Source of the DNA: a virus
Lineage: Duplodnaviria; Caudoviricetes
Virus record (IMG/VR): IMGVR_UViG_3300037424_001593
Location: 1 to 64,000 of that record
DNA length: 64,000 bases
Strand: one strand, 5' to 3'
This document shows, one piece after another, positions 2,513 to 50,669 of the stretch. The translations under genes and the position numbers were made by a program. The notes beneath the pieces were generated by a model that was given only the letters and a program-made list of their open reading frames with translations, was not told the origin of the DNA and did not search any database. Position 1 is the first letter of the stretch, and each line of letters opens with the position of its first letter.

Positions 2513-3712
2513 TCACACCTTCGATCGCAGCCCCTGCGGCGCGACCTTCTTCCAGATGACGCCAAGCGCGAGCGCGACACCGGCTGCAGCCCCGACAAGC
2601 GCGCCGTACGCCCAGCCTGCAGCGGGGTAAAGACACTCGACGTTCGTCTCGGGCACGATGAGGTTCACGTACCCACTATCGACTTCGGGCGGCGTTGTCC
2701 CTGCGGGCATCGGCACGTTCGTCACACTCTGCCCGGGCGCCACACCGCTCGAGCTCGAAGGCGTAACGACACCCCCAGATGTTGCGTCGGCCGCGAGCAT
2801 CGCGTTCTGGAACGCTGCGAGGTACCCCGGGATCGTTGATCCCAGCCCGCTGAGCGAGGAGGCCATCGAGCGCAAGCGCGCGCGACGCGAGGAGATCTCG
2901 CCCTCGGAGCTCATCACCGGACCGAACGCCCAGCCGCTCGTCGGAGGGAGCATGCGCGGCGCGTACGTCGGGTCTGCGATCGAGTTGAAGCCCCCTTGCG
3001 CTGCGTTCAGCGCAATGAAACCTCGACGCCGCAGTATCGCGCCTGATGCATCCCGGATCGGCTCGCGCGCGATCTCGATGCCGAGCGCCTTGAAGAGCGT
3101 GATTGGATCACACGTCGTCCCGATATCGTTGAGGTCAGGCCCCGGACGATACGCAGCTTCTCCACTTGAGCCGAAGATCGTCTTGTTGTTCCCTGGAAGC
3201 CAGTCGGGCGCGATGTTGTTGTACGTCGAGCGCTTGAGGTTCCGAAACTCGAAGTGCTCGTGATAGCCCATCGAGTGGAAGATGCCGTTGCGCGAGACGC
3301 CGATGCGCGCGATGTGCTGCCCTGCGGTGACACGATCACCTACAGCGACTCGGTAGTCCGCGAGGTGCGCGTAGAACGAGCACCAAGGTGTGCCGCGCGG
3401 ACCGATGAGTTGTGGGTGCTCGACGAGCACGCAGTTGCCGTAACCCGTCGTCGCGTTCTTCGCGTCTGCAGGCCACACCTCGCAGAAGACGAAGCGCACA
3501 ACGCCGTCCGCGACCGCGAATACGGGCCACGCGTTCGGCGGTTCATCGCCGTTGAAGTCGAGCCCCGCGTGAAACTTCGTGTGCCCTGCGAGCGTGCGCA
3601 GTCCGTAGTCCGAGCCGCAGAACATGCGATCGGCATCGACCGGAGGACACGCGCGGTGTCCGCTTGGGACGCCACGCGGCAAGAGCATGGCTGCGGTCAC
3701 TTCAAACGACAT
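2513..3712 (-). CDS. M23 family peptidoglycan endopeptidase with C-terminal transmembrane anchor
   Basis: HAGLD (HxxxD), VFAVADGVV, YGNCVLVEH, YAHL, HEHFE (HxH); hydrophobic C-terminus + WKK. Confidence 0.9.
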   Translation of the reverse strand: MSFEVTAAMLLPRGVPSGHRACPPVDADRMFCGSDYGLRTLAGHTKFHAGLDFNGDEPPNAWPVFAVADGVVRFVFCEVWPADAKNATTGYGNCVLVEHPQLIGPRGTPWCSFYAHLADYRVAVGDRVTAGQHIARIGVSRNGIFHSMGYHEHFEFRNLKRSTYNNIAPDWLPGNNKTIFGSSGEAAYRPGPDLNDIGTTCDPITLFKALGIEIAREPIRDASGAILRRRGFIALNAAQGGFNSIADPTYAPRMLPPTSGWAFGPVMSSEGEISSRRARLRSMASSLSGLGSTIPGYLAAFQNAMLAADATSGGVVTPSSSSGVAPGQSVTNVPMPAGTTPPEVDSGYVNLIVPETNVECLYPAAGWAYGALVGAAAGVALALGVIWKKVAPQGLRSKV

Positions 3713-3953
3713 CGGTCGCCTCCTCGTCGCTGAGCTCTTCGGCGATACGCCACATCGAAAGCAAGCCCCCGACGACGATCCCTGCGCCGGTCAGCGCCTC
3801 GGCTTGCTTGTGTTTGCCGCGCGCGTGCAGGCCCCACACGGTGAACGCGCCGAGCGTCCCACCGAGCGCGAGCGCGAGCTCGATACGCAACTTCCGAGCT
3901 CGAGGGTTCGAGTCGGGGATGATGCGGCCGAGCTGTTGAATCACGATGGCCAT
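3702..3953 (-). CDS. Small two-TM membrane protein
   Basis: Two hydrophobic segments; in structural operon. Confidence 0.65.
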   Translation of the reverse strand: MAIVIQQLGRIIPDSNPRARKLRIELALALGGTLGAFTVWGLHARGKHKQAEALTGAGIVVGGLLSMWRIAEELSDEEATDVV

Positions 3954-3956
3954 GGG

Positions 3957-4256
3957 CTACTTGCCTCCGACGCGACGCGCTGTAAGTGGTGCAGCGGCAG
4001 CAGCCGCTTCAGTAGGCGCATCTACCTCCGACTTGATTCGCAAACGGCGCTCTATATTCTCTCGCGCGCCTGCACCGGGAACAACCACCGCGTCGATGTC
4101 CCGCTTCAAAAGCACAGCCCACATGCCGTCGATCGTCTCTTCGGGAACGGCGTACGTTGTCGTGCCTGGTTTAGGGTAACCGAGATGATTGTTTACCCTG
4201 TTGATGTAGTTCTGCGCGGCCTGTTGTGTAGGGAAGAAATGGTAGGGCCGAATCAT
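3957..4256 (-). CDS. Hypothetical virion-associated protein
   Basis: ATGA overlap with upstream gene at 4253-4256. Confidence 0.55.
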   Translation of the reverse strand: MIRPYHFFPTQQAAQNYINRVNNHLGYPKPGTTTYAVPEETIDGMWAVLLKRDIDAVVVPGAGARENIERRLRIKSEVDAPTEAAAAAAPLTARRVGGK

Positions 4257-5014
4257 ATCGAATATTCCCCCTTCCAAAAGGCGAGCTCAGCAGCAGCTTG
4301 CGCTGCCGTAAATAGCCCGTCGTAGATTGACACACATGCGACAGCACCTACCCAGTATTGTGAACCCAACGTTTCGCGGCCGCCTAGCTGTATCCGCTGC
4401 GTACGCCAGGCACCCGCGGTACTGCCTGTGGTGTTGACCGTTTCGTCAAGGCCGTTCACTTTCGCTAACGGTAAGGCATTCGCGCCCGCGGTGGCTGGGT
4501 CCCACGATACGACGTTCACAAAAACCGAAGGCGTTGAAGTCTTTAGTTTCTCCGTAGAACCAGTGTAATGAAACGCTGTTCTGTAGGTTCCGGCGCCGTT
4601 GATATAGTGGACGAACCCGCCGTTGCTGACGCTGTAGTATGTAGAACTTTCGAACAAGGACGAAAACGCACCTGCGTTCAAATCTTCGGCGACCAACACA
4701 GTTGTCATGGTCGTGGGGAGCGCAAAATTACCTGCAGTCTGGTAGACCTCGGCGTCTGCGAACTCTATCGTTGGCCGATTGCCGAATGTTGCATCGGTGA
4801 CGTTGAGCAACGCCTGCTTTGCCCCTGTCGCCTGCACGAGCGCGTCAGCAGTGATGATGTTGCCGAGCCCGTCTATCGGGTTGATGCCGGATACATCAAG
4901 CCCGTTGAGCGTGCAGATCTGCGTATTCGTCGAAGCTTGCCACCGACGGTACAGCGAGGTGAAGTTCGGGCCGAGCCTGCGCTGTGCGATCGACGCTGCA
5001 GGAAACTGTCCCAT
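4253..5014 (-). CDS. Putative LamG/concanavalin-A-like receptor-binding domain protein
   Basis: QATGAKQ...GNRPTIEF, IQLGGRE, GAVACVSIYDGLFT pattern typical of phage LamG-like domains. Confidence 0.55.
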   Translation of the reverse strand: MGQFPAASIAQRRLGPNFTSLYRRWQASTNTQICTLNGLDVSGINPIDGLGNIITADALVQATGAKQALLNVTDATFGNRPTIEFADAEVYQTAGNFALPTTMTTVLVAEDLNAGAFSSLFESSTYYSVSNGGFVHYINGAGTYRTAFHYTGSTEKLKTSTPSVFVNVVSWDPATAGANALPLAKVNGLDETVNTTGSTAGAWRTQRIQLGGRETLGSQYWVGAVACVSIYDGLFTAAQAAAELAFWKGEYSI

Positions 5015-5557
5015 TCAGGATACCCAGAAAGCAGTAGCGCTCTGGCGCCAAATCAAATACGAAGGCGCTGTTTGCGGCGTCGTCGGTGACGGCACGAGCG
5101 TTGAGCCGGGCAACGACGTGATGCCCACACCCACGGCGCCACCATTGACGGTCTGTGTAACGCCCACGGCGAGCCCCATACCGAACACGGACGTGTTCGT
5201 TTTGGTAAGCACTCGAGAGACATCGATCGGCCAGGTCGTCAAGTCCGCCGCAGTTGGAAGCGTGAACGTCGCAAGTGCGCCGGTGTGAATATTCGCGATA
5301 GCGTTCTGCGTCGTCCAGTTGATGGCTGCGCCGTTTTCCGCAACGGTGCCGGAACGCTCGAGCGCACCCCACGTTGCACTGCCTGCGGTCGCAAGCGTGC
5401 ACACAAACGTCAGAAGCGCGCCCGTCACGTAGCAAAGATCGCCTACGGCGAGGTTTGCGTTCTGTATCGCCGCGCCGCTGACGTTCGGCAAATCTGCGGG
5501 CGTAGCCACGTTGGGCCACTGCCGAAAATCTGCGAGTGAAGGTCCGCGAACAGACAT
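5015..5557 (-). CDS. Short spike/fibre protein sharing an N-terminal module with 5557-6864
   Basis: ATPADLPNVSG..LAVGDLCYVTG..TFVCT..ATWGA vs ATAADLPNASG..LEVGDTAYVTG..QYVCT..ATWGA. Confidence 0.65.
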   Translation of the reverse strand: MSVRGPSLADFRQWPNVATPADLPNVSGAAIQNANLAVGDLCYVTGALLTFVCTLATAGSATWGALERSGTVAENGAAINWTTQNAIANIHTGALATFTLPTAADLTTWPIDVSRVLTKTNTSVFGMGLAVGVTQTVNGGAVGVGITSLPGSTLVPSPTTPQTAPSYLIWRQSATAFWVS

Positions 5558-6864
5558 TAGATGTTCCTCATCATGTTCAAGAACGATCCAGAAGCGTCCG
5601 TAACGGCGGTCGTGAACGTGCGAAGGTACCCTGAGCCTGTTGCGTTCGTTTGCGTCGCACTCACGTCAATACCAAGTGCGAAACCATCGAAGGAGCAGTT
5701 AGTTATGCTGTTGCCGACGCCCGTACCTTGGAAGGACGCGCCAGCGCTTGCGGCGTTGACACTCGTTGTTTGAAATGTGGAATCGGTAACACGTCCACAA
5801 ATCAAGCCGCTTGCGTTGCTGCCCGTTGCGAAGATAACACCGAACTGCGCAAGCGCTGCGATGTCCAGGATATACGCGTATCCGTTCTCCACTACAGGAC
5901 CCATGCGCAGTGCACCCGAGCCCGCGCTTGCGCCCAGACGTAGGGCTGCACGTCCCAGGCCCAAAAACTGCCAACCCACGCAGGACACAGTACCTTCTAA
6001 GTCAAAACCAATGTCTGCACGTTCAACCTGACAACTGATCAACTGCGACGTGCGTTGGAATGACGCTGCGCCGCGGGATTGAATCTCAAAACCGCTCAGA
6101 TCCGCAGCGACACCGAGCGCACGCTTCGAAACGCCGCTTAGAAGCACATGCTCGAGGTAAACACCTGCGTCCCCCGCAACGGTACGCACAATAGACGTAA
6201 GCGACTCATTCGCGACCTGTCCCGCGGTCTGCGTAGACATCGCGATTTCCACCTGGCGCATAGTCGCTAGATGGGCCAGCGAAATGACCTCTGTACCCGC
6301 AGCACCCACCGAAGGTGCAGGTACACCGATGAATACGTTCGAGAGCTCTGCGTACGTCGCGAGCGTTGCGATACGACGATTTGTCGCTGTAGCGTTAAAA
6401 ATCACGCCACCCCAGGTACCGCCGTAGCATCGCACAAAATCGGGTATTGTGAGCACTGTTGAAATCGTGTACGTCCCGGGACGAACCCACACATCCAAAC
6501 CAAGAGCGCCTGCCGCCGTAAGAGCCGCTTGAAGTTGCACCCCATCGCCCACGTCGAGGTAGTTACACACCTCGAGCGTATCACCCGCGACGCTGTTGCC
6601 TACGATGAGCCGCGGTCCTTGGTGGTCCGTGTTCGGGTTCGCGCCCCACGTTGCGTCAGCACCGCTGAGCGTGCCTTTCGACGTGCAAACATACTGTTGT
6701 GTGGTGCCTGTAACGTACGCGGTGTCGCCGACCTCAAGCTGCGTGAAGTACGGGTTGGCGAGTGCGTTTCCGCTCGCGTTCGGAAGATCTGCGGCAGTCG
6801 CGTAGTTGCCCCAGTCGCGGCTGTACTGCGAACGAGCTTGCAGCGTAGGAGTCTTCGCAGCCAT
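5557..6864 (-). CDS. Beta-helix (pectate-lyase-like) spike protein
   Basis: DGVQLQAALTAAGA..VWVRPGTYTISTVLTIP beta-helix cap motif; Asn/Gly-rich repeats downstream. Confidence 0.7.
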   Translation of the reverse strand: MAAKTPTLQARSQYSRDWGNYATAADLPNASGNALANPYFTQLEVGDTAYVTGTTQQYVCTSKGTLSGADATWGANPNTDHQGPRLIVGNSVAGDTLEVCNYLDVGDGVQLQAALTAAGALGLDVWVRPGTYTISTVLTIPDFVRCYGGTWGGVIFNATATNRRIATLATYAELSNVFIGVPAPSVGAAGTEVISLAHLATMRQVEIAMSTQTAGQVANESLTSIVRTVAGDAGVYLEHVLLSGVSKRALGVAADLSGFEIQSRGAASFQRTSQLISCQVERADIGFDLEGTVSCVGWQFLGLGRAALRLGASAGSGALRMGPVVENGYAYILDIAALAQFGVIFATGSNASGLICGRVTDSTFQTTSVNAASAGASFQGTGVGNSITNCSFDGFALGIDVSATQTNATGSGYLRTFTTAVTDASGSFLNMMRNI

Positions 6865-8018: not shown

Positions 8019-8019
8019 A

Positions 8020-8424: not shown

Positions 8425-8673
8425 TCAGGAGTCTCCACCGCGCAGATACGCGACTGCTTTGCCGACGAGCGCGAGCTCTTTAGGCATGTGCTTCTGTACG
8501 AGCTTCTTGAGCGCGCCCCGTGTGAGCTCGCCGAGTCCTGTGATCGCACGCTGCACAAACGGCGAGCAGCGCGCGCACACGATCGTCCGGTAGCGACCAC
8601 GCACGTGGAACACGTGCGCGTCGCGGGGCGATGTGATGCTGCTCGAGCAAATGGCGCAGGGCGTGTTCATCAA
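8425..8673 (-). CDS. Small CxxC..CxxC protein
   Basis: CAIC, CARC; RBS-linked within operon. Confidence 0.6.
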   Translation of the reverse strand: MMNTPCAICSSSITSPRDAHVFHVRGRYRTIVCARCSPFVQRAITGLGELTRGALKKLVQKHMPKELALVGKAVAYLRGGDS

Positions 8674-8880: not shown

Positions 8881-9297
8881 CTACCTCCGCGTTCGTGGTT
8901 TCTGAAAGAGCAGCATACCCGCACCGACGAGCCCGAGCAGCCCGACGAGCCCTTGGCCGACGTGGACGCTCGTTGTCACGTAGCCGCGCGTCTCCATGAT
9001 GTTCGCGAGCGAGGCGATGCTGACCTGCAGGCCCGCGCCGATGCCCGCGCCCCGCCAGTCGCCCCGCGTCGTCGCGAGCCCGATGCCGCCACCGACGACC
9101 GCTGCGGCGCCGAGCGAGACGAAAGAGCGCGCGGCCGGCGTCATCGAGCCGATCGACCCGAAGCCGCTCAGCGGCTTGAGGTTCACGACGGGCGCCTGGT
9201 TCGACTGCGCCATCACAACGCTGCCGAGCCGCGTGCCGCTCGCCTGCTGTGCCGCTTCGAGGAAAGGCATTGCTTGTTCGTCTTTCACGGCGTTCAT
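8881..9297 (-). CDS. Multi-TM membrane protein with LSGFG motif
   Basis: Three glycine-rich hydrophobic segments; basic C-terminus. Confidence 0.7.
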   Translation of the reverse strand: MNAVKDEQAMPFLEAAQQASGTRLGSVVMAQSNQAPVVNLKPLSGFGSIGSMTPAARSFVSLGAAAVVGGGIGLATTRGDWRGAGIGAGLQVSIASLANIMETRGYVTTSVHVGQGLVGLLGLVGAGMLLFQKPRTRR

Positions 9298-9920: not shown

Positions 9921-10979
9921 TTAGACCTCAAGCATGTAGCGCGAGGGAACCTTGTCCCGGAGCGAACGCAGAGGCGTCGGCGAGCCGACACCGCGGCGCA
10001 CCTTGCGTCGCTTTTTCGACGCAGGTAGACCACGCATCGCAGGCGAGCTCGAGCCGCGCTTCCACTGCCAGAACTTATAGCCAGCGTAGATGAACACGGT
10101 GCTCACGACCGCGACGCCGATCCACCCGAACACGCCAAGCCCTGTGTCAGGCTGCGGAAGCTGGTTGAAGAACTCGGTGAGCGCGGCGCGCGGAACGACC
10201 TGCGCAGCGAGCGCCGAGCACTGCTCTGCGGTCGCACCTTCTTGCTGCATGCATGTGGCGAACGCCTGCTCTCGGTTACCGAGAAACTCTTCGACCGCAG
10301 ACGTCTGCGCCCACGTAAGGAAGAAGCGCTCGAGCGCAGGCACCCACACGCTGGTCAAGTACATCACGATGCCGACGGCTGCGAGCGCCGCGATCACCGC
10401 GAGTGCGATAGGGATGACCGCGGGGTTACCGAGCCCCTGCAGCGCTTGTGCGGGCGTACCCATCTCGAGCTTCGGGAGCCAGCCCGGGTAGGGGATGCGC
10501 GCCATCACCTGGTCGCCGATCGTGCGCCCGACCTTGTCGTAGAGTTGCACGCGGAGCGTCTGCAGGTAGACGACCTGCGTCTCGTGCACCGCGTGGCGGT
10601 ACGCGTCGTAGCGCGCGTACGCCTCTGCGTTCATGAGTCCTTGACCGTGCTGCCATGCGAAGCGCATGTACACGCTGAGCGCGCGCTGCTCGAGCTGGTT
10701 GAGCTGATTCCACGCGCTCTGAAAATCCGTCATCGGCGTGTAGTCGGTGAGGAACTCGGGCAAGAGCGCAGCGCGTAGACGCGCACGCACGCTCGCAGCC
10801 TGCACCACAGCCGCCTGCGCCGCTTCACCGCCCGTCGAAGCGCTGTCGCCCGCCTCACCGAGACCGCGCACGCCGCGAGGTACCTGCGCGCTCGTAGCGC
10901 GCGCTTCGTCTGCGCGAATCGCAGCCTCGGCACCTGCAGGGGAACCGAAGCCTCGACCGAATGCGTTCTGATTGAACAT
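9921..10979 (-). CDS. Two-TM membrane protein with repeated GLG/GFG motifs and basic tail
   Basis: TM IPIALAVIAALAAVGIVMYL and GVFGWIGVAVVSTVFIYAGY; KKRRKVRR. Confidence 0.75.
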   Translation of the reverse strand: MFNQNAFGRGFGSPAGAEAAIRADEARATSAQVPRGVRGLGEAGDSASTGGEAAQAAVVQAASVRARLRAALLPEFLTDYTPMTDFQSAWNQLNQLEQRALSVYMRFAWQHGQGLMNAEAYARYDAYRHAVHETQVVYLQTLRVQLYDKVGRTIGDQVMARIPYPGWLPKLEMGTPAQALQGLGNPAVIPIALAVIAALAAVGIVMYLTSVWVPALERFFLTWAQTSAVEEFLGNREQAFATCMQQEGATAEQCSALAAQVVPRAALTEFFNQLPQPDTGLGVFGWIGVAVVSTVFIYAGYKFWQWKRGSSSPAMRGLPASKKRRKVRRGVGSPTPLRSLRDKVPSRYMLEV

Positions 10980-14477: not shown

Positions 14478-15158
14478 TCAGGCCACCGGACGACGCTTCA
14501 TGCCGTCGAGCCACCAGCGAAGACGGATCGCCTGATTCAGGTCGATCATCGTGTTGTACGTCTTGCACTGCAGGTAGAGGTTGCGGTCACTCTCGATGTA
14601 GATCGGGAGATTCAGCATCCACTGGTTGTTCGCACTGACGCGACCACCTGTGCCGACGTCGTACGCTGAGGCGCTGTCGACGACCTCCGCATACGAGGTG
14701 CCGTGGACCACGACGCCGACCGACTGCGGGATCCCGCTGAAGGGCTGGCGAAGCTGGGGCTTGCTCTGGTTCGCGCCCACGTAGAGCTCGACGACGACGT
14801 CGCGCTCGAGCACGAGCAGATTGTGCCGCGAGACCATCGGGATGTCGGCGGGGGAGCCGATGTCCGCAGCCTGCTCCGGCGCGGCGGTGAGGCCGAACGC
14901 TTCGTAGGTGACGCCGTACACGACGAAGGCTTCGTCGTAGTTCGTGCGTGCCTTCGTGAGCCAGTTCGTATCGTTGTCCGTCGAGTTGCGGGGCGCGAGA
15001 CCCTGCGACGAGACCGGATTACCCGACACGTACTGGAATGCACGGAGGTTGAGCTTGACGCCCGCCGCGAACTCCATGACGGAGTACTGGGGGTAGTGCA
15101 GCCACTCGTCGAGCTGGATGGTGCTGCCGTCGTAGAGTCGAAGATCGCGGATTGCCAT
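14478..15158 (-). CDS. Putative major capsid protein paralogue 3 (single jelly-roll-like)
   Basis: LRLYDG..EW..QYS..AFQY..RNSTDNDTN..EAFVVYGV..LNLPIYI..LRWWLDGMKRRPVA. Confidence 0.65.
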   Translation of the reverse strand: MAIRDLRLYDGSTIQLDEWLHYPQYSVMEFAAGVKLNLRAFQYVSGNPVSSQGLAPRNSTDNDTNWLTKARTNYDEAFVVYGVTYEAFGLTAAPEQAADIGSPADIPMVSRHNLLVLERDVVVELYVGANQSKPQLRQPFSGIPQSVGVVVHGTSYAEVVDSASAYDVGTGGRVSANNQWMLNLPIYIESDRNLYLQCKTYNTMIDLNQAIRLRWWLDGMKRRPVA

Positions 15159-15176
15159 GGTGGTGTCTTCCTCGAA

Positions 15177-15896
15177 TCAGGCGACGGGGCGCTTGTGATC
15201 GCCGAGAAGGTGGATGCGCAAGCGAATGCGCGCGTCTGCCGCAGAAGAGCCAGTGAAGGCCAGCGCGGAGGGCGAATCGATCGCACCGGTCGGCGCGATG
15301 AAGCGCGCCCGGAACGTCTCACCACCCTGGATGAAGAGGGGCGACGCGAGCTGCCGCACGCCCTTGATGCTCGTCGAGCCGTTGTTGCCGACGATGTAGC
15401 CTGCCGCGCCGGAGAATCCGACACCGCCCGCCGTGCCGCTCTCCGCGCCCGAACCGGCTGCGAAAAACGAGACCGGAACGCGGAGGTATTCCTTCACGCC
15501 CGCGATGAGGAAGCTCATGATGAGCGAGTCCTGAATGCGGAGCATGTTGCGCAGACCGACATCGGGGAAGATCTCGTTGTCCGCACTCGTCATGAGCGGC
15601 GCCTCGCTCGGCGTGCCCACATTGATGCTGTAGAACTCGATGCGGATCGCTCGGATGAGCATCGCTTCGTTTTCCGGCAGCTGTCCACCCTGACCCTGCA
15701 GGTTGGTGTCGGCGTACGTCGCGTTGCGCTGCGCCGCGCCCGGGATGGCCTGGTTCAGGCCGTAGGAGAAGGCGTCGAGCGTCGTGAACGAGCCCGTGCC
15801 GAGCTCCACGGTCGAGTAGAGACCCTCCGCCGTGGTCCAGTCGGCCGGCGTCATCACGCGGCCATCTGGATATCGAATCTTGAGTAGCTGACCCAT
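15177..15896 (-). CDS. Putative major capsid protein paralogue 2 (single jelly-roll-like)
   Basis: Start ATG 15896; IRYPDG..DW..LYST..AFSY..RNATYADTN..EAMLIRAI..LASPLFI..LRIHLLGDHKRPVA. Confidence 0.65.
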   Translation of the reverse strand: MGQLLKIRYPDGRVMTPADWTTAEGLYSTVELGTGSFTTLDAFSYGLNQAIPGAAQRNATYADTNLQGQGGQLPENEAMLIRAIRIEFYSINVGTPSEAPLMTSADNEIFPDVGLRNMLRIQDSLIMSFLIAGVKEYLRVPVSFFAAGSGAESGTAGGVGFSGAAGYIVGNNGSTSIKGVRQLASPLFIQGGETFRARFIAPTGAIDSPSALAFTGSSAADARIRLRIHLLGDHKRPVA

Positions 15897-15918
15897 GGTT
15901 CGCTTCTTCCCTTCCCGA

Positions 15919-16662
15919 TCAGCTGACGGGCTTCTTGTAGAGGCCTTCGAGGCACACACGCACTCGATAGAGGCGCTGCGCGTTCGCGGCCGGAGAACCC
16001 ACAGCGTTTGCGGTGAGACCGATGTTCAGGGCCTCGCTCGTGGGATTACGGACCTGGATTTCGAACTTCTCCTGGCCGCCGATGTGGATCGGGACCGTGA
16101 GACAGCGCGAAGCCTCCGCCGAAGGGATGCCGCTCGCGCCCGTCGGGATCGCCGACTGCGCTGCGACCGTACCGGCTGCGCCGGCCTGAGAGAACACACC
16201 GAAGCCGGTCGGCCAGTAGGCGAACGGTGCACGGTGCTTGAGCTTCTGGCTGATCAGGATCTCGAACACGGTGGAGCGGAACAGACGTCCGAGCTGCCAC
16301 GGTGAGGGGAGCGGATCGAAGGCCAGCGTCTCGACAGCGGTCGTCGCGTTGCCGGCCGAGCTCATCACGAGCGCTGCGAACTCGGGCTTGACGGAGTAGA
16401 TCAGGAACTCCTCCGTCGAGCTGAGGCCGTTCGGCGTCGAGATGTTCGTGTCGGCTTCGGTCGCCGTGCGCTTCGTCGTGATGTTCTGGGTCGAAGAGAC
16501 CTGATCGCTCACGACGTAGTTGAAGAGTGGGATGATCTCGTCCGTCGCGCCATTCATGATGTCGCAGGTCGAGTACAGCGGCTGGTCGGTCCAGTCCACG
16601 AACGCGACTTGCTGGCCGTCAGGAAGGCGGAGCGTCGTGATCTGGTTGATGGGTGAGAACAT
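15919..16662 (-). CDS. Putative major capsid protein paralogue 1 (single jelly-roll-like)
   Basis: LRLPDG..DW..LYST..LFNY..RTATEADTN..EEFLIYSV..LTVPIHI..VRVCLEGLYKKPVS. Confidence 0.65.
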   Translation of the reverse strand: MFSPINQITTLRLPDGQQVAFVDWTDQPLYSTCDIMNGATDEIIPLFNYVVSDQVSSTQNITTKRTATEADTNISTPNGLSSTEEFLIYSVKPEFAALVMSSAGNATTAVETLAFDPLPSPWQLGRLFRSTVFEILISQKLKHRAPFAYWPTGFGVFSQAGAAGTVAAQSAIPTGASGIPSAEASRCLTVPIHIGGQEKFEIQVRNPTSEALNIGLTANAVGSPAANAQRLYRVRVCLEGLYKKPVS

Positions 16663-16682: not shown

Positions 16683-17309
16683 TCAGACGCGGAAGCCCGG
16701 CGTACCGAAAGCCTTCATGTTGAGCCCAGCGTCACCGAGACCCTGGAGCTGGATGTTGGTCCCGTAGTCCCCGCTGAGACCGCGCATGCCCGCGATGGAA
16801 TCAGGGCGGTGACCCTGCGGCCAGTTCTCGAGCACCGTGGCACCGAGGCCGTTCATCTGCGGCATGACCATCCCCATGCCGGACGCGCTGCCGTACTCAG
16901 GGACGATCGCGCCGAAGCCCGCCGTGCCCGTCGCAGCCGGGGCGATGGCGAGCGTGCCCTCGCGGACGTACGCGCCAGCACCTGCGAGCAGGGCCGTGGT
17001 CGTCGCAGCGATGGCTGCGCGGTGACCCTGCTTGAGGCCGTACGCCATGCTCGCACCGAGGAGCGCGCCCGCGGCCATGCCGATCGCGGGGGCGTGTCGG
17101 TTGAGCATCGCGCCGGTCTGCGTGCCGGGCGAGAGCTTGGGCACGACGAAGCGGCGCACGAGCCAGATGGCTCCTACGGCCGTTCCACCGCCGACGAGGA
17201 TCGGAAGCGCCGTGCCCACGACCGTGTTGGAGTCGAAGAGGCCGTTGACGCCCCGACGAACCTCGATGATGTTTCCGAATCCGCGCCGTGAGCGCTTACG
17301 CTTTGCCAT
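16683..17309 (-). CDS. Three-TM virion membrane protein with basic N-terminus and six G[LFM]G/S motifs
   Basis: MAKRKRSRRGFG; hydrophobic segments; AGFG, SGMG, NGLG, RGLS, QGLG. Confidence 0.75.
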   Translation of the reverse strand: MAKRKRSRRGFGNIIEVRRGVNGLFDSNTVVGTALPILVGGGTAVGAIWLVRRFVVPKLSPGTQTGAMLNRHAPAIGMAAGALLGASMAYGLKQGHRAAIAATTTALLAGAGAYVREGTLAIAPAATGTAGFGAIVPEYGSASGMGMVMPQMNGLGATVLENWPQGHRPDSIAGMRGLSGDYGTNIQLQGLGDAGLNMKAFGTPGFRV

Positions 17310-17328
17310 GGTGTGGTGGTTCCTTTTT

Positions 17329-17340
17329 TCTTATACCCCG
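17329..17340 (-). promoter_or_regulatory. Putative late promoter CGGGGTATAAGA
   Basis: Exact motif repeated at 19453 and 23610, one mismatch at 26624; upstream of virion genes. Confidence 0.7.
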
Positions 17341-17372: not shown

Positions 17373-17645
17373 TCAGCGCTTGCGAGCCTTCTTCGCCGTC
17401 TTCTTGGCGCCGAAGAGCTTGATGGCATTGCGCTGGCCCTTCTTCGTCGAGAAGCAGCGCTTCTTGCCGCTCTTGAACTTCACGCAGTACTTCTTCGCGG
17501 CCTTGGTCGCCTTGCGCGCCTTCTTGGCGGGCTTGCGCTTCGTGCGCTTGCGACGACCCGCGAGACCCGCGAGAGAGTTGATGGAACGCCCCGCGGGGTC
17601 ACCCGAAGCGCGCACTGCGGTGCATCCACAATCTGCCATGATCAT
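17373..17645 (-). CDS. Lys/Arg-rich histone-H1/protamine-like core protein
   Basis: RRKRTKRKPAKKARKATKAAKK...KKTAKKARKR. Confidence 0.75.
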   Translation of the reverse strand: MIMADCGCTAVRASGDPAGRSINSLAGLAGRRKRTKRKPAKKARKATKAAKKYCVKFKSGKKRCFSTKKGQRNAIKLFGAKKTAKKARKR

Positions 17646-18013
17646 CCTCGTTTCCACACGAAGTATGCGCCTACCCCGATCAAGGCAACCGTGCCGAGAG
17701 CGAGGAGCACAACGTTCTTTGTCTGTTGGCTCTGCAGGTGCGCGTATCGCGCCCAGAGATCTGCGTAACTGCGCTGCGCGCCAACGAGCTCCGAAGCAAC
17801 GAACCCTGGGTCGTTCTCGAAGTTGTCCACACGCGTGCCGAAGAGCTCGATGTCCTCGAGCAAGCGCGACACCTCGGGCGAGCTCGAGCGTGATGCGAGC
17901 TCCTGCGCGAGCAGGTGCAGTCGCGTCGTCTCGCTTGAGAGCGCGCTGATGTCGTTCGCGAGATCATCCGCCGCAGAGCCGAAGCCTCGCCCAGGGAAGT
18001 ACGGAACGATCAT
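17642..18013 (-). CDS. C-terminally anchored helical membrane protein
   Basis: Start ATG 18013 (ATGA overlap); MIVPYFPGRGFGSAADD...VVLLALGTVALIGVGAYFVWKRG. Confidence 0.75.
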   Translation of the reverse strand: MIVPYFPGRGFGSAADDLANDISALSSETTRLHLLAQELASRSSSPEVSRLLEDIELFGTRVDNFENDPGFVASELVGAQRSYADLWARYAHLQSQQTKNVVLLALGTVALIGVGAYFVWKRG

Positions 18014-18852
18014 CCGCGCCCCCGCTTCGTCCAGCGCTTGAACACCCAGACGCCGAAGATCCCAGCAACCACGGTCGATCCGAGGATAAGCGGCACGCGA
18101 TACGGCGAAGGCCGATGCACGGGCGCTGTCACGTCGATCGCTTCGCCCTGAATCACATCCTGAGGCGCCGCGGTGCTCGAGCCCGGCACCGTGACCGGAT
18201 ACCCGTTCGGCACCTGACTCGCGGCTTGGAGCGCGAGGAAGAACGCGTTGCTCACGCTCGTACCTGTCGCCGTAGGCGCAGGACCCGTCGTGGTCGTCGT
18301 AGTTGTGGCTGTTGCGACGCTGTTTGTGCGCGAGCTCGTGTCTTCGACGCCCACGCTCTGCGCGTAGGAGTCGATGTTCCAGAGCGCTTCGCCGTACGTG
18401 GTGCCTTGCGCAGCGGCGAGAACACGCTGCCGCGCGCGCGCAGCCCAATCTGTGGGTGCGCCCGCGCTCACGCAGTTGACCTGTCCGCGCAGCGCCGTGA
18501 TGTTGTTCGCGACCTTCGCAGGCGTGTCGTTCATCGCTGCGTTTGCGACCGTGAGCAGATCCTTACGACAACTGCTCGCGCTCGGCGTCGTGCCTGAGAG
18601 CCAGAGCATGTAGAACGCGGCGTTGGCGGACTTGCGCCCCCACACACCGTCTGCGCTGAGCAGCGGCGGCGGCACAGGCCCGTTCAACTGGATCACACGT
18701 GCAACGAAATCCGGAAGCGCGTTGTTGTACGCGCCCTGAAACGACGCAATGAGCGCCTTCTGCACATGCGCAGGCGCACGATCACCCATGCCCAGCACGG
18801 CTGCCCATGCGGACTCAGTGAGCGTGAACACCTGCGATTGCGAGAACGACAT
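18010..18852 (-). CDS. Membrane-anchored protein with putative peptidoglycan-binding motif
   Basis: LSADGVWGRKS (PG_binding_1-like DG.xG); Thr-rich linker; C-terminal TM + KRWTKRGRG. Confidence 0.6.
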   Translation of the reverse strand: MSFSQSQVFTLTESAWAAVLGMGDRAPAHVQKALIASFQGAYNNALPDFVARVIQLNGPVPPPLLSADGVWGRKSANAAFYMLWLSGTTPSASSCRKDLLTVANAAMNDTPAKVANNITALRGQVNCVSAGAPTDWAARARQRVLAAAQGTTYGEALWNIDSYAQSVGVEDTSSRTNSVATATTTTTTTGPAPTATGTSVSNAFFLALQAASQVPNGYPVTVPGSSTAAPQDVIQGEAIDVTAPVHRPSPYRVPLILGSTVVAGIFGVWVFKRWTKRGRG

Positions 18853-19055: not shown

Positions 19056-19415
19056 TCACTTGGGGCAGACGGGGCGACCCTTGTGGATGCGGCAGCCCTT
19101 CTTGAGAGCCTTCGCAAACGAGACGCGCTTCATGCCCTTCGGCACGCTGCGTGTCGGAAGACCTGCACCGGTTGCACCGGCCTCGGCTGCCTTTTTCGAG
19201 CAGACGTAGACGTTCTTCTCGCCCTTGACGCGCTTGCAGCCCTTGCGGAGCTTGCTGCCGACCTTCGCGATCGACTTGTGCACGCAGACCTGACCCTTGC
19301 GGGGCTTGCACTTCGCTTCGCGCTCGAGACGCTTGCTGGTCTGAATCCGCGCGTAGTACGGATCGACGTCGATGTCGCCCATCCCTCGCCTGCGTCGCCG
19401 TGTTCGCTTTGCCAT
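19056..19415 (-). CDS. Lys/Arg/Cys-rich basic core protein
   Basis: MAKRTRRRRRGMGD...KGCKRVKG...KGCRIHKGRPVCPK. Confidence 0.75.
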   Translation of the reverse strand: MAKRTRRRRRGMGDIDVDPYYARIQTSKRLEREAKCKPRKGQVCVHKSIAKVGSKLRKGCKRVKGEKNVYVCSKKAAEAGATGAGLPTRSVPKGMKRVSFAKALKKGCRIHKGRPVCPK

Positions 19416-19452
19416 CGTGAGCACCTGTGGTCGGTGTTGAACCGTTCTTTTT

Positions 19453-21720: not shown

Positions 21721-22580
21721 CGAAGCACCACGATCCCGAGCACCGCAGCGACCGCGACGCCCCCAGCAACGTACATCCACGTCTTCGACGGCTCCGCAGC
21801 TGCAGGCGCTGCAGGACCCGCAGACGGCATATCGCCCGGAGGCGTCGTCACCGATGCGCTGTTCGTCGTCGCGCCTACGCGCTGCGTCTGCTGAATCGAC
21901 TGCGTGAGCCCCGACGCGACGTTGCGCCAATCCATCGCAGTCTGACTCGCGGTGCCGACAGTCCCTGTGCGCGCTTCGGTACGCGCGTCGCAGATGTTCG
22001 TGTACAGCGACGTGAGAATGTTCGTCGTCGCGCCCGCGATCTGCAGGTTCTGTCGCGTATCCACAGTGAGACCCTGTGAACCGACGACACCACCGCTCGT
22101 GGTCGTGGTCTCGCTGCGGAAACCGCCGCTCCCGAGCGTAGTGAGAGTGCCCCCAATCGCCCCGAGGATGCCCTGCGCAGCTTGCGCGCCCGTAGATGTG
22201 CATGCGCGCCCGTCGCCGCCGAGACCACGAAAGCCCGAGCGTGAGAGCCCTGTGCGCGCACCATGAGCTGCAGCGAGCGACGCAATGCTCGCACCAACAC
22301 GCGACGGCGCATCGTCGGCGAAACCGCTCGAAGGACGATAGACGCGCGCGCTCGGATCGACACGACCCTCGAAGAGCACGCCAGGTACGGTCTGCGGCGG
22401 AGGCGTCGGCACGTTCTGCCGGCGCAGATCAGTCATCCGCATGTGCGCGGCGTTCGCTACGTTGCGCACAGCCATCGGCATGCGCCCAGCCGCACCATTG
22501 TCTTCGAAGAACGCACGCGGGGGACCGGGACGCGATACCGTGATCGAGAGGTCCGGAGCTCGAGACTTCATGACATGCAT
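21717..22580 (-). CDS. C-terminally anchored membrane protein
   Basis: Start ATG 22580; FRGLGGDG; TWMYVAGGVAVAAVLGIVVLR. Confidence 0.7.
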   Translation of the reverse strand: MHVMKSRAPDLSITVSRPGPPRAFFEDNGAAGRMPMAVRNVANAAHMRMTDLRRQNVPTPPPQTVPGVLFEGRVDPSARVYRPSSGFADDAPSRVGASIASLAAAHGARTGLSRSGFRGLGGDGRACTSTGAQAAQGILGAIGGTLTTLGSGGFRSETTTTSGGVVGSQGLTVDTRQNLQIAGATTNILTSLYTNICDARTEARTGTVGTASQTAMDWRNVASGLTQSIQQTQRVGATTNSASVTTPPGDMPSAGPAAPAAAEPSKTWMYVAGGVAVAAVLGIVVLR

Positions 22581-22584: not shown

Positions 22585-22977
22585 TCACCGTTTCGCGGGC
22601 TTGCCGAAGCCCTGATAGAACGCGACGCCCGTCGTGATGATCGGGAAGAACGCCGCAGAGAGTCCCCAAAGCGCGCCGTAGCCGACGCTCTTTCGGTTGC
22701 GCTTGTACCCGTGGTACGCGCTTGCACCGAGGCACACGAGCCCAAGCCCGAGGCGCGCATACCCGAGTGGCGTAATCGTCATCTCGCCGAGCCCGCTGAA
22801 GCCCGCCATGCGGCTCGCGACCGCAGCCGGCGTGTGCTGATTCCACGCCTCGGTCGGTTGATCCGGCTGACCGATAGCACCCCACACAGGCGCGACGTTG
22901 TTCTGTGGGAGGCGCGGGCTCACGATCGGACGCGGGCGCCAATCCCATTGCACATCTGGCTGCAGACTGTTGTTCAT
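22585..22977 (-). CDS. Membrane protein (ASAYHGYKRN..WG..FP..QGFG domain)
   Basis: Two TM segments after FSGLG. Confidence 0.75.
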   Translation of the reverse strand: MNNSLQPDVQWDWRPRPIVSPRLPQNNVAPVWGAIGQPDQPTEAWNQHTPAAVASRMAGFSGLGEMTITPLGYARLGLGLVCLGASAYHGYKRNRKSVGYGALWGLSAAFFPIITTGVAFYQGFGKPAKR

Positions 22978-39012: not shown

Positions 39013-39785
39013 TATCTAGGATCACCGCAATGCTACACATCCAGAACACACGTGAAGTCATGCAGCCTTGGATTCACTGTCTCTTCTACGGGGACAGCGG
39101 ATCAGGTAAGACGACGCTCGCTTCGACATTTCCCGACCCGCTGTTCGTCGTGCCTGCACGCGAGCGCAGCGAGCTCACACTCGCAGGCCAGGACATCCCG
39201 TTCGTGCGCGTAGGCATCGACGAGAACGAAAAGCCGCTTCCGCCGATGAAGCACATGCTCACTGTGCTTCGCGAAATCGAGAAGCGCCATGCAGCTATGG
39301 GCGCCGCGGTGATCGCGGGGGACGAAGCAGCAGCTGCGGCGCATTTTCCGTGGCAGACGCTCGTCTTCGAGTCGCTCTCGCACTACGTGAGCGACATCCA
39401 AATCGAAATCTCGGGTGGGCGTCAGATGGATCAACAGGGCTGGGGCAAGCTCTACGACCACATGCGTGAGCTCCACATGCGTCTTCGCGCGCTGCAGTGC
39501 CATGTCGTCTTCACGTCGCTCGCGAAGGTGGACGGTGAAGGCACCGCAGCAACGGGCGGTCCGTCGCTCTCCGGGCAGACGGGAAAGCTCTTGCCGAGCG
39601 CGTGCGACATCGTCGGGTACTGCGTCGCGCTCGAGCGCAGCAACCAAGACACGAACTACCAGCTCTACCTGAAGCAGCATCGCGTTTTCCCTGCGCGCTC
39701 ACGCTTCAAGACGATGCCGAAGTACTGGGAGAACCCGAGCTTCGCGCAGTTCGCGCCTTACATCCCTGGTCTCACGCCTGGTTGA
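39009..39785 (+). CDS. AAA_24 / Sak4-like phage ATPase
   Basis: LFYGDSGSGKTT, LVFESLS, QGWGKL, PSACDIVGY. Confidence 0.85.
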   Translation: MISRITAMLHIQNTREVMQPWIHCLFYGDSGSGKTTLASTFPDPLFVVPARERSELTLAGQDIPFVRVGIDENEKPLPPMKHMLTVLREIEKRHAAMGAAVIAGDEAAAAAHFPWQTLVFESLSHYVSDIQIEISGGRQMDQQGWGKLYDHMRELHMRLRALQCHVVFTSLAKVDGEGTAATGGPSLSGQTGKLLPSACDIVGYCVALERSNQDTNYQLYLKQHRVFPARSRFKTMPKYWENPSFAQFAPYIPGLTPG

Positions 39786-48115: not shown

Positions 48116-48118
48116 CCC

Positions 48119-49050: not shown

Positions 49051-49072
49051 CACAGCAAACGAGGTACCCCTG

Positions 49073-49477: not shown

Positions 49478-49482
49478 TCGTC

Positions 49483-49728
49483 ATGGCGCACAACCAAAAA
49501 GAAGCAGTACGCGAGCTCCTCGGACACGCGGAAGCCGCGGTCGAGCACTTCGCCCCTGCGCTCGGGTCCTACGCCGTAGCCGCGCTCCCTCTGGTCCGCA
49601 AAGGCCTCAAGGCTTTGATCAAGCTCATCGAGGACAGGGGTCACGAAGATGCGGAGCGCATCCTCGACGAGCTCCTCGAGAAGGGCGCGGCTCGCCTCGA
49701 GCTCCCGGGGAGCGACGAAGCCGAATGA
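49483..49728 (+). CDS. Small helical protein
   Basis: RBS GAGGAG; overlap with amidase. Confidence 0.55.
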   Translation: MAHNQKEAVRELLGHAEAAVEHFAPALGSYAVAALPLVRKGLKALIKLIEDRGHEDAERILDELLEKGAARLELPGSDEAE

Positions 49729-50417
49729 CCTTCGCGTACGACGACCGCCTGCGCACGGACATGAGCCACGCGCTCCCGATCCGGCCCGTCAAAGGGTATG
49801 CGATCAAGGGTGGTCGTGTCGTACTGCGGGACCCGACAAAGATCATCGGCATTACGCTGCACCAGACAGCTTGCGAGTTCGGGCTTGCAGCGTACCAGAT
49901 CAAGGCGGCGCGTGGGGACCGCAGGCTCGCGCAAGCACGGCGCGCGCTCGCGGTACCTGCACACGTCGTCTCTTTCGAAGAGCAGTTCGTGACGCCGTGT
50001 CCGCTCCTCGCGCTTGCGTACCACGGACACGGGCTCAACAACTTCACGTACGGCGAGGAAATCGAGGGTCTCTACTTCGGCGTCGCCGGTGACCTGAAGA
50101 CGCTCTGGACGGGCAAGCTCGACAGAGCTACGGAGTGGACGCCGAAGCGCAGAGACACCGCGCGCGCGGCACTCTATTACATCTACACGAACGGGCGACG
50201 TTTAGGTTCTCCGCTCGAGTATCTCTTTGCGCATCGCCAATCGACAGCGAAACCCTCGGACCCAGGCCAACAGGTTTGGGAAGACATCGCAATCGATTTT
50301 GGCGAGAAGGAGCTCGGCCTCAAGCCGAAGCTCGAGTACACGCTCGTCGATCGCCACGGCCGCAAGGGCCGACCCATTCCGCGGGAATGGGATCCGCGTT
50401 CCCCTGTGAAATACTGA
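49725..50417 (+). CDS. N-acetylmuramoyl-L-alanine amidase (Amidase_2) endolysin
   Basis: ITLHQT, PAHVV, YHGHGLN, EIEG, AHRQ, KPSDPG. Confidence 0.85.
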   Translation: MTFAYDDRLRTDMSHALPIRPVKGYAIKGGRVVLRDPTKIIGITLHQTACEFGLAAYQIKAARGDRRLAQARRALAVPAHVVSFEEQFVTPCPLLALAYHGHGLNNFTYGEEIEGLYFGVAGDLKTLWTGKLDRATEWTPKRRDTARAALYYIYTNGRRLGSPLEYLFAHRQSTAKPSDPGQQVWEDIAIDFGEKELGLKPKLEYTLVDRHGRKGRPIPREWDPRSPVKY

Positions 50418-50429
50418 AGGGTCTACAAC

Positions 50430-50669
50430 ATGCGAACGGTTACCCTCGACGGTCTCGGCGGCGTGATGCCTGTAGCGAGCAACGCGCGAAACACGCAACT
50501 CTACGGTTTTGGTGCGGCAGACGATGCGTCGCTTCCGGAGGGGATGATGGTTTACGACGCGCGTGCGATGCGTAGGAATCACATCATCATCGGTGTGGCT
50601 GGGCTCGTTGTGGGCGGAGCGCTAGGCGCCACGTTCATGCACATGTCGATGAAGCGAAAGCGAAGGTAG
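50430..50669 (+). CDS. Small C-terminally anchored protein with LDGLG and LYGFG motifs
   Basis: TM IIIGVAGLVVGGALGATF + KRKRR. Confidence 0.7.
   Translation: MRTVTLDGLGGVMPVASNARNTQLYGFGAADDASLPEGMMVYDARAMRRNHIIIGVAGLVVGGALGATFMHMSMKRKRR

Follow-up and report, generated by a model that had tools for sequence, protein, structure and literature searches.

Many late proteins of the virus represented here carry a tripeptide in which a Leu, Phe or Met is flanked by two glycines (G-[LFM]-G), which raises the question of whether this motif is a signal or merely a consequence of Gly-rich composition and, if it is a signal, what reads it. The initial annotation of the window (the whole stretch of DNA that was analysed, 64,000 nucleotides) had proposed that it marks sites of pro-peptide processing, as in adenovirus, and that it is read by the enzyme encoded at 26049-26615. 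The virus is an uncultured, large, bacterial virus, tailless and probably membrane-containing. Its capsid proteins are three tandem single-jelly-roll paralogues of about 240 aa (14478-16662, minus strand; AF2 model at pLDDT 80), and the fold matches SPV1 MCP (Z 7.4), P23-77 VP17 (Z 5.6) and HCIV-1 (Z 5.5) as compared by VIA.

We took the late block to be the minus-strand region 2513-26615, which in our own gene model encodes 34 proteins (7586 aa). All the motif instances listed in the initial annotation were recovered in the translations of the ORFs to which they had been assigned. The late block contains 26 G-[LFM]-G; shuffling the residues of each protein predicts 9.4 (sd 2.9), with a total of 26 reached in none of 1000 shuffles, and shuffling confined to 20-aa blocks predicts 10.5 (z 4.9). 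The excess is borne by all three middle residues (GLG, 15 vs 5.7; GFG, 7 vs 2.4; GMG, 4 vs 1.7), whereas Ile, Val and Ala are not enriched at this position and the late block's G-x-G tripeptides with a middle residue other than L, F or M are at their shuffled expectation (59 vs 60.5). Outside the late block, the window shows no excess (10 vs 8.0-8.4). The form R-G-[LFM]-G occurs within the first 20 residues of four late proteins, compared to 0.039 expected (Poisson P ~1e-7), and in none of the remaining 99 proteins encoded by the complete 77-kb genome; in these four proteins, R-G-F/M-G ends a leader at residues 9-13.

Five related virus genomes show a late-block excess as well (z 7.0, 6.4, 3.9, 3.2 and 2.7), and none of them has any outside that block. 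A lack of enrichment over a Gly-rich background had been set beforehand as the refuting outcome; clear enrichment was observed in the window and in all five relatives. Over the six genomes together, early proteins contain 85 motifs vs 79 expected and so show no avoidance. When 611 non-redundant late proteins were pooled, GLG was enriched 2.47-fold (z 18), GFG 2.73-fold (z 12) and GMG 1.65-fold, while every other G-x-G tripeptide stayed at or below 1.5-fold. The underlying DNA pattern is frame-specific, occurring 116 times in the reading frame but 24 and 12 times in the two alternative frames, and the motif acts at the protein level. These counts point to a virion-protein tag present at about 2.5 times chance, an undescribed candidate for a cut-or-dock signal in virus assembly; our literature search found no published description of a G-[LFM]-G tag associated with this type of enzyme.

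The carriers are of a particular class. The motif is strongly over-represented in proteins with transmembrane (TM) segments (80 vs 25.3 expected), in late proteins that are neither TM nor capsid proteins (39 vs 15.5) and in proteins for which no homologues were detected (43 vs 17.3), whereas in the capsid-protein families the count is not significantly raised (13 vs 9.1). The distribution resembles that in adenovirus, in that minor and membrane proteins are enriched and the shell families are not. The motif density of TM proteins is twice that of the others, and the sites concentrate within 20 residues upstream of TM segments, 13 of the 131 sites falling inside predicted segments. The capsid paralogue encoded at 15919-16662 has one G-F-G (aa 153), at the start of a low-confidence loop, in which G153 and G155 are invariant and Phe is the consensus. 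G-[LFM]-G is best explained as a selected short linear signal of minor, core-like and membrane-anchored late proteins that is absent from the shell.

The residues around the motif are also constrained. In many unrelated proteins, R-G-[LFM]-G and a subsequent Ser, Asn, Asp or Ala come after a short N-terminal leader; the preferences are for Arg immediately before the motif (5.7-fold among N-terminal instances in the 611 late proteins), a hydrophobic residue two positions before and a small or polar residue after. Indeed, [MLI]xG[LFM]G occurs 39 times in late proteins vs 7.3 expected, and the enriched signal is hydrophobic-x-G-[LFM]-G, or in its fuller form hydrophobic-x-G-[L/F/M]-G-small. The motif lies within the first 40 residues in 94 of the 611 proteins. 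The claim that it often follows an N-terminal peptide is partly true, as the sites are not mainly N-terminal: the late blocks of the six genomes hold 131 sites in 35,636 aa, or 0.37 per 100 aa overall, and at residues 10-30 this value rises to 0.5-0.6. Individual positions are no better conserved than those of control G-x-G tripeptides (34% vs 35% common to two or more members).

The four leader-bearing proteins of the window, all encoded on the minus strand, illustrate this arrangement. Directly upstream of the capsid genes lies the gene for a 208-aa membrane protein (16683-17309) with an Arg/Lys-rich leader, R-G-F-G at aa 9-12 and further motifs at aa 131, 144, 154 and 190; its ~60 homologues share a basic leader, a hydrophobic-Gly element and S/N-I-I-x-V-R, usually with a second G-[LFM]-G after it. 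In the 352-aa two-TM protein encoded at 9921-10979, R-G-F-G (aa 9-12) is followed by G-L-G at three places (aa 39, 182 and 280), of which the second and third directly precede TM segments, and its orthologue in the genome G001 retains G-L-G ahead of TM1. In the 123-aa tail-anchored protein (17642-18013), R-G-F-G again occupies aa 9-12, with R-G-L-G at the aligned position of the G001 orthologue. Finally, the 119-aa, very basic, Cys-containing and core-like protein (19056-19415) has an Arg-rich leader and R-G-M-G at aa 10-13. The start of its gene is ambiguous, being either ATG 19415 or ATG 19382 (the Met of the motif itself); the motif requires ATG 19415, a start supported by homologues beginning M-A-K-R.

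In the other tagged late proteins, also encoded on the minus strand, the motif occupies various places. A 280-aa tail-anchored protein (18010-18852) has G-M-G at aa 21, and a 749-aa two-TM protein (19471-21720) has G-L-G at aa 25 and 29, the orthologues of the latter starting with M-x(1-3)-G-L-G or M-V-L-R-G-F-G. R-G-L-G is found at aa 115-118 of a 284-aa tail-anchored protein (21717-22571), G-F-G at aa 45 of a 138-aa two-TM protein (8881-9297) and G-L-G at aa 45 of an 81-aa protein (8425-8670) that the initial annotation had not listed. The 130-aa membrane protein encoded at 22585-22977 carries three motifs: G-L-G at aa 62, G-L-G at aa 77 and, just six residues short of its C-terminus, G-F-G at aa 123. 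Three spike or fibre-like late proteins (4253-5014, 5015-5557 and 5557-6864) contain one G-[LM]-G apiece (aa 49, 126 and 302, respectively). The 399-aa M23 peptidase (2513-3712; Pfam Peptidase_M23, E 1.6e-14) ends in a TM anchor, and its G-L-G (aa 289) lies in the linker joining the enzyme domain to the anchor, as does that of the G001 orthologue at the corresponding place. Beyond the late block, on the plus strand, a 79-aa tail-anchored protein (50430-50669) carries two motifs, G-L-G (aa 8) and G-F-G (aa 26).

The candidate reader or protease of the motif is encoded by the first gene of the late block (26049-26615, minus strand), and the enzyme that had been proposed there is real: its 188-aa product is a cysteine enzyme with a transglutaminase fold. 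It matches Pfam Transglut_core (PF01841) with an E-value of 1.4e-5 (25.8 bits, cutoff 23), as do 21 of 21 homologues (best E 2.1e-11), and its AF2 model has a pLDDT of 91. The best sequence-profile match in the PDB is LapG (4u65_E, E 8e-5), and the Foldseek neighbours are hydrolases of the transglutaminase fold: LapG (a top match), putative Cys proteases, CPR-C4 and PeiP/PeiW, the last being wall hydrolases of archaeal viruses. The triad Cys114-His147-Asp165, set on a papain-like core, is invariant in 21 sequences. D113 and D115 flank the catalytic Cys within a D-C-D-D that is invariant among the 21 homologues and align with the G-D-C-E-D of LapG; the enzyme's own G-L-G (aa 110) belongs to the active-site loop. 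The Pfam BTLCP model matched none of the 21 family members at E <= 1, and the N-terminus of the enzyme is hydrophilic, with no TM or signal-like segment found.

The enzyme is encoded in six of six genomes (the window virus and its five relatives). In some homologues, inteins are inserted exactly before the catalytic Cys, which indicates that the active site is needed. A search of 50,697 phage records returned a single homologue, gp34 of the Salisaeta phage SSIP-1 (E 6e-5), annotated as a 'structural protein' of the virion. The late block yielded no other cysteine-hydrolase gene, the adenain family was not among the Pfam hits of the 30 window proteins scanned, and Pfam and PHROGs scans of the late proteins revealed no gp21-family serine prohead protease.

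The motif excess, together with an enzyme that has an intact triad, kinship to LapG and a virion homologue, makes cleavage plausible, and our preferred reading, to which we give a probability of about 0.4, is that G-[LFM]-G is the putative recognition and cleavage site of the virus-encoded, LapG-like enzyme. Analogy with gp34 of SSIP-1 suggests that this enzyme would become part of the particle. The short Arg-rich or strand-like leader ending in R-G-F/L/M-G would be a targeting propeptide, trimmed after incorporation, and at linker motifs domains may be released or remodelled, e.g. the M23 peptidase domain from its membrane anchor. In proteases of the LapG type, recognition involves a secondary-structure element that immediately precedes the scissile motif of small residues (PMC13090378). 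We infer that the enzyme reads the motif and cuts there, and the position of the scissile bond is likewise a putative one. Several features sit poorly with cleavage, however: there are up to five motifs in one 208-aa protein, some sites are adjacent to TM segments or six residues from a C-terminus, and cutting at such multi-copy, TM-adjacent or C-terminal sites makes less obvious sense. In addition, the leader of one orthologue is just five residues long, and the known LapG site, [T/A/P]-A-A-G, is unlike the motif and shows only a mild enrichment in late proteins (28 vs 17.6). The missing BTLCP match, the wall hydrolases among the structural neighbours, site positions conserved no better than controls and the lack of avoidance in early proteins likewise do not favour cleavage.

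A non-cleaved docking signal, in which the Gly-flanked Leu, Phe or Met plugs into a putative pocket, either in the capsid proteins or in an assembly factor, is a possible explanation that we regard as nearly as likely as cleavage. Membrane and minor proteins would thereby be recruited to the forming particle and the membrane tethered to the shell, and the enzyme would do something else, for instance act as a virion-borne cell-wall hydrolase during entry. Docking accounts equally well for positions that are no better conserved than those of controls, for the multi-copy C-terminal arrays and for the sites adjoining membranes: multiple copies whose positions turn over while their density stays are typical of multivalent linear motifs, and their placement near membranes and at extreme termini is consistent with docking. 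The shell proteins lack an excess, as a binding partner would, and in the ~60 homologues of the 16683-17309 protein the conserved block, a strand-like I-I-x-V-R-R followed by G-[LFM]-G, would lie on the mature-protein side. Docking tags of Gly and hydrophobic residues have a precedent in the cargo-loading peptides of encapsulins. As for a role in entry, PeiP and PeiW hydrolyse cell walls, and the SSIP-1 homologue is in the virion, where the entry lysins of membrane phages sit; but the membrane-anchored M23 peptidase could already be the wall hydrolase, the nearest sequence relative of the enzyme is a true protease (LapG), and Arg-rich leaders followed by a small-residue motif look like known propeptides. 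Pro-peptide processing as initially annotated is partly supported, by the enrichment, the enzyme and the distribution over minor and membrane proteins, but docking fits the data as well, and the enzyme is not of clan CE.

It is unlikely that the motif is a structural by-product with no dedicated reader, whereby Gly-rich, flexible, membrane-proximal segments would favour a bulky hydrophobic residue between glycines through a biophysical preference for interface anchoring or helix packing. The twofold density in TM proteins, the peak within 20 residues of TM segments and the sites inside them are what such a preference would produce, and the late proteins of P23-77 and SSIP-1 combine a weak motif excess (13 vs 6.7 in SSIP-1) with a general G-x-G excess. 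Yet the excess persists under block shuffling, is specific to L, F and M, extends to late proteins lacking TM segments and comes with informative flanks; moreover, the N-terminal R-G-[LFM]-G tags are far from membrane segments, and the membrane proteins of PRD1 show no excess (3 vs 4.6). Even less probable is cleavage by another protease, either a host enzyme or the M23 metallopeptidase, whose domain is recognised by Pfam and whose C-terminal anchor would bring it to the membrane that also holds the tagged proteins. Enzymes of the M23 family (lysostaphin, LasA) are specific for Gly-Gly and Gly-X and prefer Gly at the scissile bond. However, of the five relatives only one was found to encode an M23 orthologue in its late block, compared to six of six genomes for the transglutaminase-fold enzyme; phage M23 enzymes are usually wall hydrolases, and this one bears the motif in its own linker.

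Of the known systems, the LapG/BTLCP family (MEROPS C93), calcium-dependent periplasmic cysteine proteases that cut adhesins at [T/A/P]-A-A-G, shares with the window enzyme the Cys-His-Asp triad and the acidic residues flanking the Cys, which bind calcium in that family (D-C-D in the window enzyme; D-C-E in DvhG, PMC13090378), and, with the putative site here, an arrangement in which a docking element stands before the small residues of the scissile motif. Unlike LapG, the window enzyme lacks a signal peptide and a LapD partner, is virus-encoded and probably virion-associated, and has a different candidate site. The Cys, His and Asp are also shared by gp34 of SSIP-1, a tailless phage with a membrane that has been cultured; gp34 is only 23% identical over half the protein and carries an additional C-terminal region with a TM anchor. 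The SSIP-1 genome is 44 kb, and its capsid proteins gave no match to those of the window.

In T4, a capsid targeting sequence on internal proteins is removed by the prohead protease gp21, and T4-type and giant-phage (SPN3US, phiKZ) leaders both target a protein into the particle and get trimmed. The likeness lies in a short N-terminal leader ending in a consensus site on unrelated particle proteins. Those phages are tailed, their prohead proteases are of the serine type and their sites end in Glu, whereas the window virus is tailless, with a jelly-roll rather than an HK97 capsid fold, a cysteine enzyme and a Gly-based site, many instances of which are internal or membrane-adjacent.

Adenain (MEROPS C5) cuts adenovirus pIIIa, pVI, pVII, pVIII, pX/Mu and pTP at (M/I/L)-X-G-X|G and (M/I/L)-X-G-G|X. 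The fit to this consensus claimed for many sites is partial: 7 of the 26 window sites have M, L or I two positions before the first Gly, only about a quarter, and the consensus as such is not enriched. Indeed, the X-G-G class is at expectation ([MLI]xGG-x, 55 vs 54.4), and [MLI]xGxG is enriched only with L, F or M between the glycines ([MLI]xG[^LFM]G, 49 vs 46.4). The window enzyme also differs in being transglutaminase-like and not of clan CE (Ulp1-like), the host is bacterial, the capsid proteins are single jelly rolls and the cleavage is putative; adenain is packaged, while a virion location of the window enzyme is proposed by analogy. The two systems nevertheless resemble each other in the hydrophobic residue two positions before the first Gly and in basic leaders followed by a site, the layout of pX/Mu (basic peptide, site, hydrophobic tail) recalling that of the 16683-17309 family. 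Both combine a cysteine enzyme with a short Gly consensus borne by minor, core and membrane-active proteins and not by the major shell.

The tripeptide G-[LFM]-G is clearly over-represented in the proteins encoded by the late block of the window (2513–26615, minus strand). Within-protein shuffles gave 9.4 expected occurrences and shuffles of 20-residue blocks gave 10.5, to be compared with 26 observed, a number that none of the shuffles reached, whereas all other G-x-G tripeptides of the late block were found at the expected frequency (59 versus 60.5). The excess concerns only L, F and M as the middle residue, I, V and A not being over-represented. Furthermore, four late proteins carry R-G-F/M-G at residues 9–13, for 0.039 expected. 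The initial annotation had proposed that the motif recurs in virion proteins as a maturation-cleavage or assembly signal. All the instances that it quoted were found in the sequence; the enrichment over a Gly-rich background, a test set beforehand, was confirmed, and so was the contrast with the other proteins of the window, in which the motif occurs 10 times for about 8 expected (26 versus about 10 in the late proteins). There is thus good support for a signal under selection that is specific to late proteins.

The window (64 kb, the full virus record having 76,963 bp; G+C about 62%) was analyzed with a gene model built with a self-trained codon scorer, which distinguishes three parts relevant to the motif: the late block, a plus-strand replication block (DUF3987 primase–helicase, SNF2 helicase, and family A polymerase fused to UDG) and small early genes. 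Headed by a transglutaminase-like protein, the late block encodes an M23 peptidase anchored in the membrane at its C-terminus, a pectate-lyase-like and a lectin-like protein, three tandem paralogues of about 240 residues together with two larger ones, and many small proteins in which a C-terminal transmembrane segment precedes a basic tail. None of the 10 late proteins tested matched a PHROGs family, most of those tested had no Pfam match, and neither the 380-residue protein encoded at 24867–26009 nor the capsid protein gave a tblastn match among 50,697 phage records. The AlphaFold model of the capsid paralogue encoded at 15919–16662 (28 homologues, pLDDT 80) best matched the capsid jelly rolls of membrane-containing viruses, with middling Z scores (SPV1, 7.4; P23-77 VP17, 5.6; HCIV-1, 5.5). 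On the basis of these matches, it is reasonable to regard the virus as probably tailless, its capsid proteins being single jelly rolls and its particle containing an inner membrane.

Several other features of the gene model are worth recording. Tail-anchored late proteins, with one C-terminal transmembrane segment followed by three to six Lys/Arg residues, are frequent (e.g. 17642–18013, 18010–18852, 19471–21720, 21717–22571 and 50430–50669), and neighbouring late genes often overlap by 4 nt, the ATG or GTG start sharing bases with the preceding TGA stop. The sequence GGGGTATAAGA lies within 17310–17340, about 20 nt upstream of the start of gene 16683, and a ribosome-binding site comes after it. 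The late block showed no ATPase; the sole compact Walker-A ATPase of packaging-ATPase size (251 residues, 39030–39785, plus strand) is encoded at a large distance from the capsid genes, within the plus-strand block.

The motif excess recurs in related viruses. The capsid protein has many metagenomic homologues; used as a single-sequence query, it matched no viral contig, but a scan with an alignment of its homologues (A1) yielded 7 loci from IMG/VR and 71 from metagenomes, with gene order conserved. Five related virus records were taken whole and their genes called. The late block displayed a motif excess in each of them (z = 7.0, 6.4, 3.9, 3.2 and 2.7), and the remainder of each genome displayed none. 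When late-strand proteins were pooled and reduced to 611 by de-duplication at 80% identity, the observed/expected ratio was 2.47 for GLG (z = 18), 2.73 for GFG (z = 12) and 1.65 for GMG, and at most 1.5 for all other G-x-G. Among the six late blocks, the excess was found in proteins with a transmembrane segment (80 observed versus 25.3 expected), in non-membrane, non-capsid proteins (39 versus 15.5) and in proteins for which these six blocks contain no detectable homologue (43 versus 17.3), the capsid-protein families being the sole class without it (13 versus 9.1). As for other membrane-containing viruses, the late proteins of PRD1 showed no excess (3 versus 4.6), that of P23-77 was weak and unspecific, and that of the SSIP-1 late proteins was mild (13 versus 6.7); in SSIP-1, gp37, gp53 and two further late proteins have G-M-G or G-L-G close to their N-termini.

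The signal operates at the peptide level. Indeed, GGN-YTN-GG occurs 116 times in frame, the counts for the two remaining frames being 24 and 12, and the motif is encoded by 48 different 9-mers, which points to selection on the peptide; together with the ordinary Gly codon usage within the motif, these observations rule out a repeated nucleotide signal. The Leu codon of G-L-G has a usage of its own in the late blocks of the six genomes: CTG accounts for about 6% of motif Leu codons versus 23% of all Leu codons of the same genes, CTC and CTT being preferred (e.g. 16842–16850).

The residues surrounding the motif are not random either. When the position two residues ahead of the first Gly is hydrophobic, the enrichment reaches 5.3-fold ([MLI]xG[LFM]G, 39 versus 7.3). 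As to the earlier suggestion that many instances fit the adenovirus protease consensus, the adenain patterns as such, [MLI]xGG (55 versus 54.4) and [MLI]xG[^LFM]G (49 versus 46.4), are flat. When the motif lies in the first 40 residues, Arg is enriched directly before it (5.7-fold), with further Arg upstream, and S, N, D or A tend to come directly after it, then I or L. Many unrelated proteins open with a short, often strand-like, Arg-containing leader ending in R-G-[LFM]-G. In the family of gene 16683, which lies immediately upstream of the capsid genes, about 60 homologues, read from their true starts, share in succession a basic leader of variable length (only five residues in one orthologue), a hydrophobic-Gly element, S/N-I-I-x-V-R-R and, in most cases, a second G-[LFM]-G. 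In variants, the middle residue is V or T, or R replaces the first Gly. A prepilin-peptidase or Tat-signal reading of the R-R-G-F leaders was rejected, as no hydrophobic stretch follows the site.

Motif copies are also found in C-terminal arrays, in linkers, as between the M23 domain and the anchor of the M23 peptidase (2513–3712) and at the corresponding place in the orthologue from a related genome (G001), and in the 20 residues upstream of transmembrane segments, where their density is two to three times higher. This membrane-adjacent enrichment suggested a sortase-like C-terminal sorting signal (motif, transmembrane segment, basic tail), which was discarded because most sites are far from a C-terminal anchor. 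The positions of motif sites are not conserved more strongly than those of control G-x-G sites: individual sites turn over while density is maintained, as is usual for short linear motifs.

Three local observations may be added. Proteins of the 16683 family end, but for a few last residues, in a conserved A-F-G-T-P-G-F tail (16683–16730), after a Gly-rich G-[LFM]-G array. The capsid paralogue encoded at 15919–16662 contains G-F-G at residues 153–155 (16198–16206), usually followed by Pro, with both Gly invariant in the 28 homologues and Phe as the consensus; it starts a loop of about 40 residues for which the AlphaFold model is of low confidence (pLDDT about 50). Finally, the start of a basic core-like protein is ambiguous (19382–19424): GTG 19424, ATG 19415 or ATG 19382, the last being the Met of a G-M-G motif, and the gene finder repeatedly picked such an internal Met in 16683 homologues.

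The protein encoded at 26049–26615 (minus strand) is the candidate reader of the signal. Like all 21 aligned homologues, it matches Transglut_core; D113, C114, D115, D116, H147 and D165, which include the Cys114–His147–Asp165 triad, are invariant in the family alignment, and its model has a pLDDT of 91. A profile search of solved structures returned LapG first (4u65_E, E = 8e-5), G-D-C-D-D being aligned to the G-D-C-E-D of LapG, and its Foldseek neighbours are LapG, putative cysteine proteases, CPR-C4 and the pseudomurein endoisopeptidases PeiP and PeiW. LapG-type proteases need a C-H-D triad and an acidic calcium site flanking the Cys, cut [T/A/P]-A-A-G and dock a helix just upstream of the site (PMC13090378). 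When the enzyme was compared with the 50,697 phage records, a single match emerged, to gp34 of Salisaeta phage SSIP-1, which is cultured, tailless and membrane-containing; the annotation of gp34 is structural protein, the triad is shared, and a C-terminal anchor is present. The family is large (5535 representative clusters at E ≤ 0.001) and mostly viral. In two homologues (P0063 and P0168), an intein of about 340 residues sits immediately ahead of the catalytic Cys, which speaks for the importance of the active site; the insertion starts with Cys and ends with His-Asn, the catalytic Cys would serve as the +1 residue, and the Pfam Intein_splicing matches are below the curated cutoff. Other homologues of 505–560 residues are weaker cases (the equivalent position in the window is the Cys114 codon, 26274–26276). 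The enzyme gene heads the late block, occupies the same upstream place in several relatives, and is present, as is the motif, in all six genomes, so that co-occurrence provides no contrast.

We rank first, with a probability of about 0.4, the reading that this enzyme cleaves motif-bearing late proteins at the motif, the N-terminal copies being targeting leaders that would subsequently be trimmed; here we infer the reader of the signal. Cleavage by the enzyme is favoured by its closest resemblance being to a true protease, by the location of its gene, and by a substrate pattern mirroring that of adenovirus and T4, i.e. minor, core-like and membrane proteins rather than the shell. A non-cleaved docking motif is possible and nearly as likely; docking better explains the multi-copy arrays, the membrane-adjacent sites, their positional turnover and the conserved segment on the side left after a cut. 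A biophysical by-product is improbable compared to either, and still more so is a cut made by a different protease, for example the M23 enzyme. Returning to cleavage by the transglutaminase-fold enzyme, we would extend it, slightly more tentatively, to a group: tailless membrane-containing bacterial viruses of 50–90 kb with a single-jelly-roll capsid may mature via a packaged LapG-like cysteine protease reading hydrophobic-x-G-[L/F/M]-G on at least a dozen proteins (core, membrane and enzyme) that are unrelated to one another, with N-terminal copies doubling as particle-targeting leaders.

Adenoviruses, poxviruses, ASFV and tailed phages all have, at the centre of their assembly, particle maturation by a virus-encoded protease whose sites follow a shared code. 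If a packaged LapG-like maturation protease is confirmed, prokaryotic tailless viruses would have their first maturation-protease system, convergent with adenain and its cleavage sites in eukaryotic viruses, and the transglutaminase protease fold would gain a new biological role. As a cleavage code, the motif would connect the way in which bacterial jelly-roll viruses assemble with that of eukaryotic ones, and would give the enzyme family a function. Even as a docking tag, it would provide a simple sequence marker for virion proteins where late proteins match no family, and possibly a handle to load foreign proteins into such particles. BTLCP genes in tailed-phage genomes have been noted only as auxiliary genes of unknown role (PMC11283719), and the words protease, proteolytic and cleaved are absent from a 2019 review of membrane-containing bacteriophages (PMC6356626). 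The motif and enzyme would work similarly to adenain and its sites, and to the T4 targeting sequence and gp21, but belong to neither system: the adenain consensus as such is not enriched in the late proteins here, the protease fold differs from that of both adenain and gp21, and the virus carries jelly-roll capsid proteins and is, we infer, a tailless bacterial virus.
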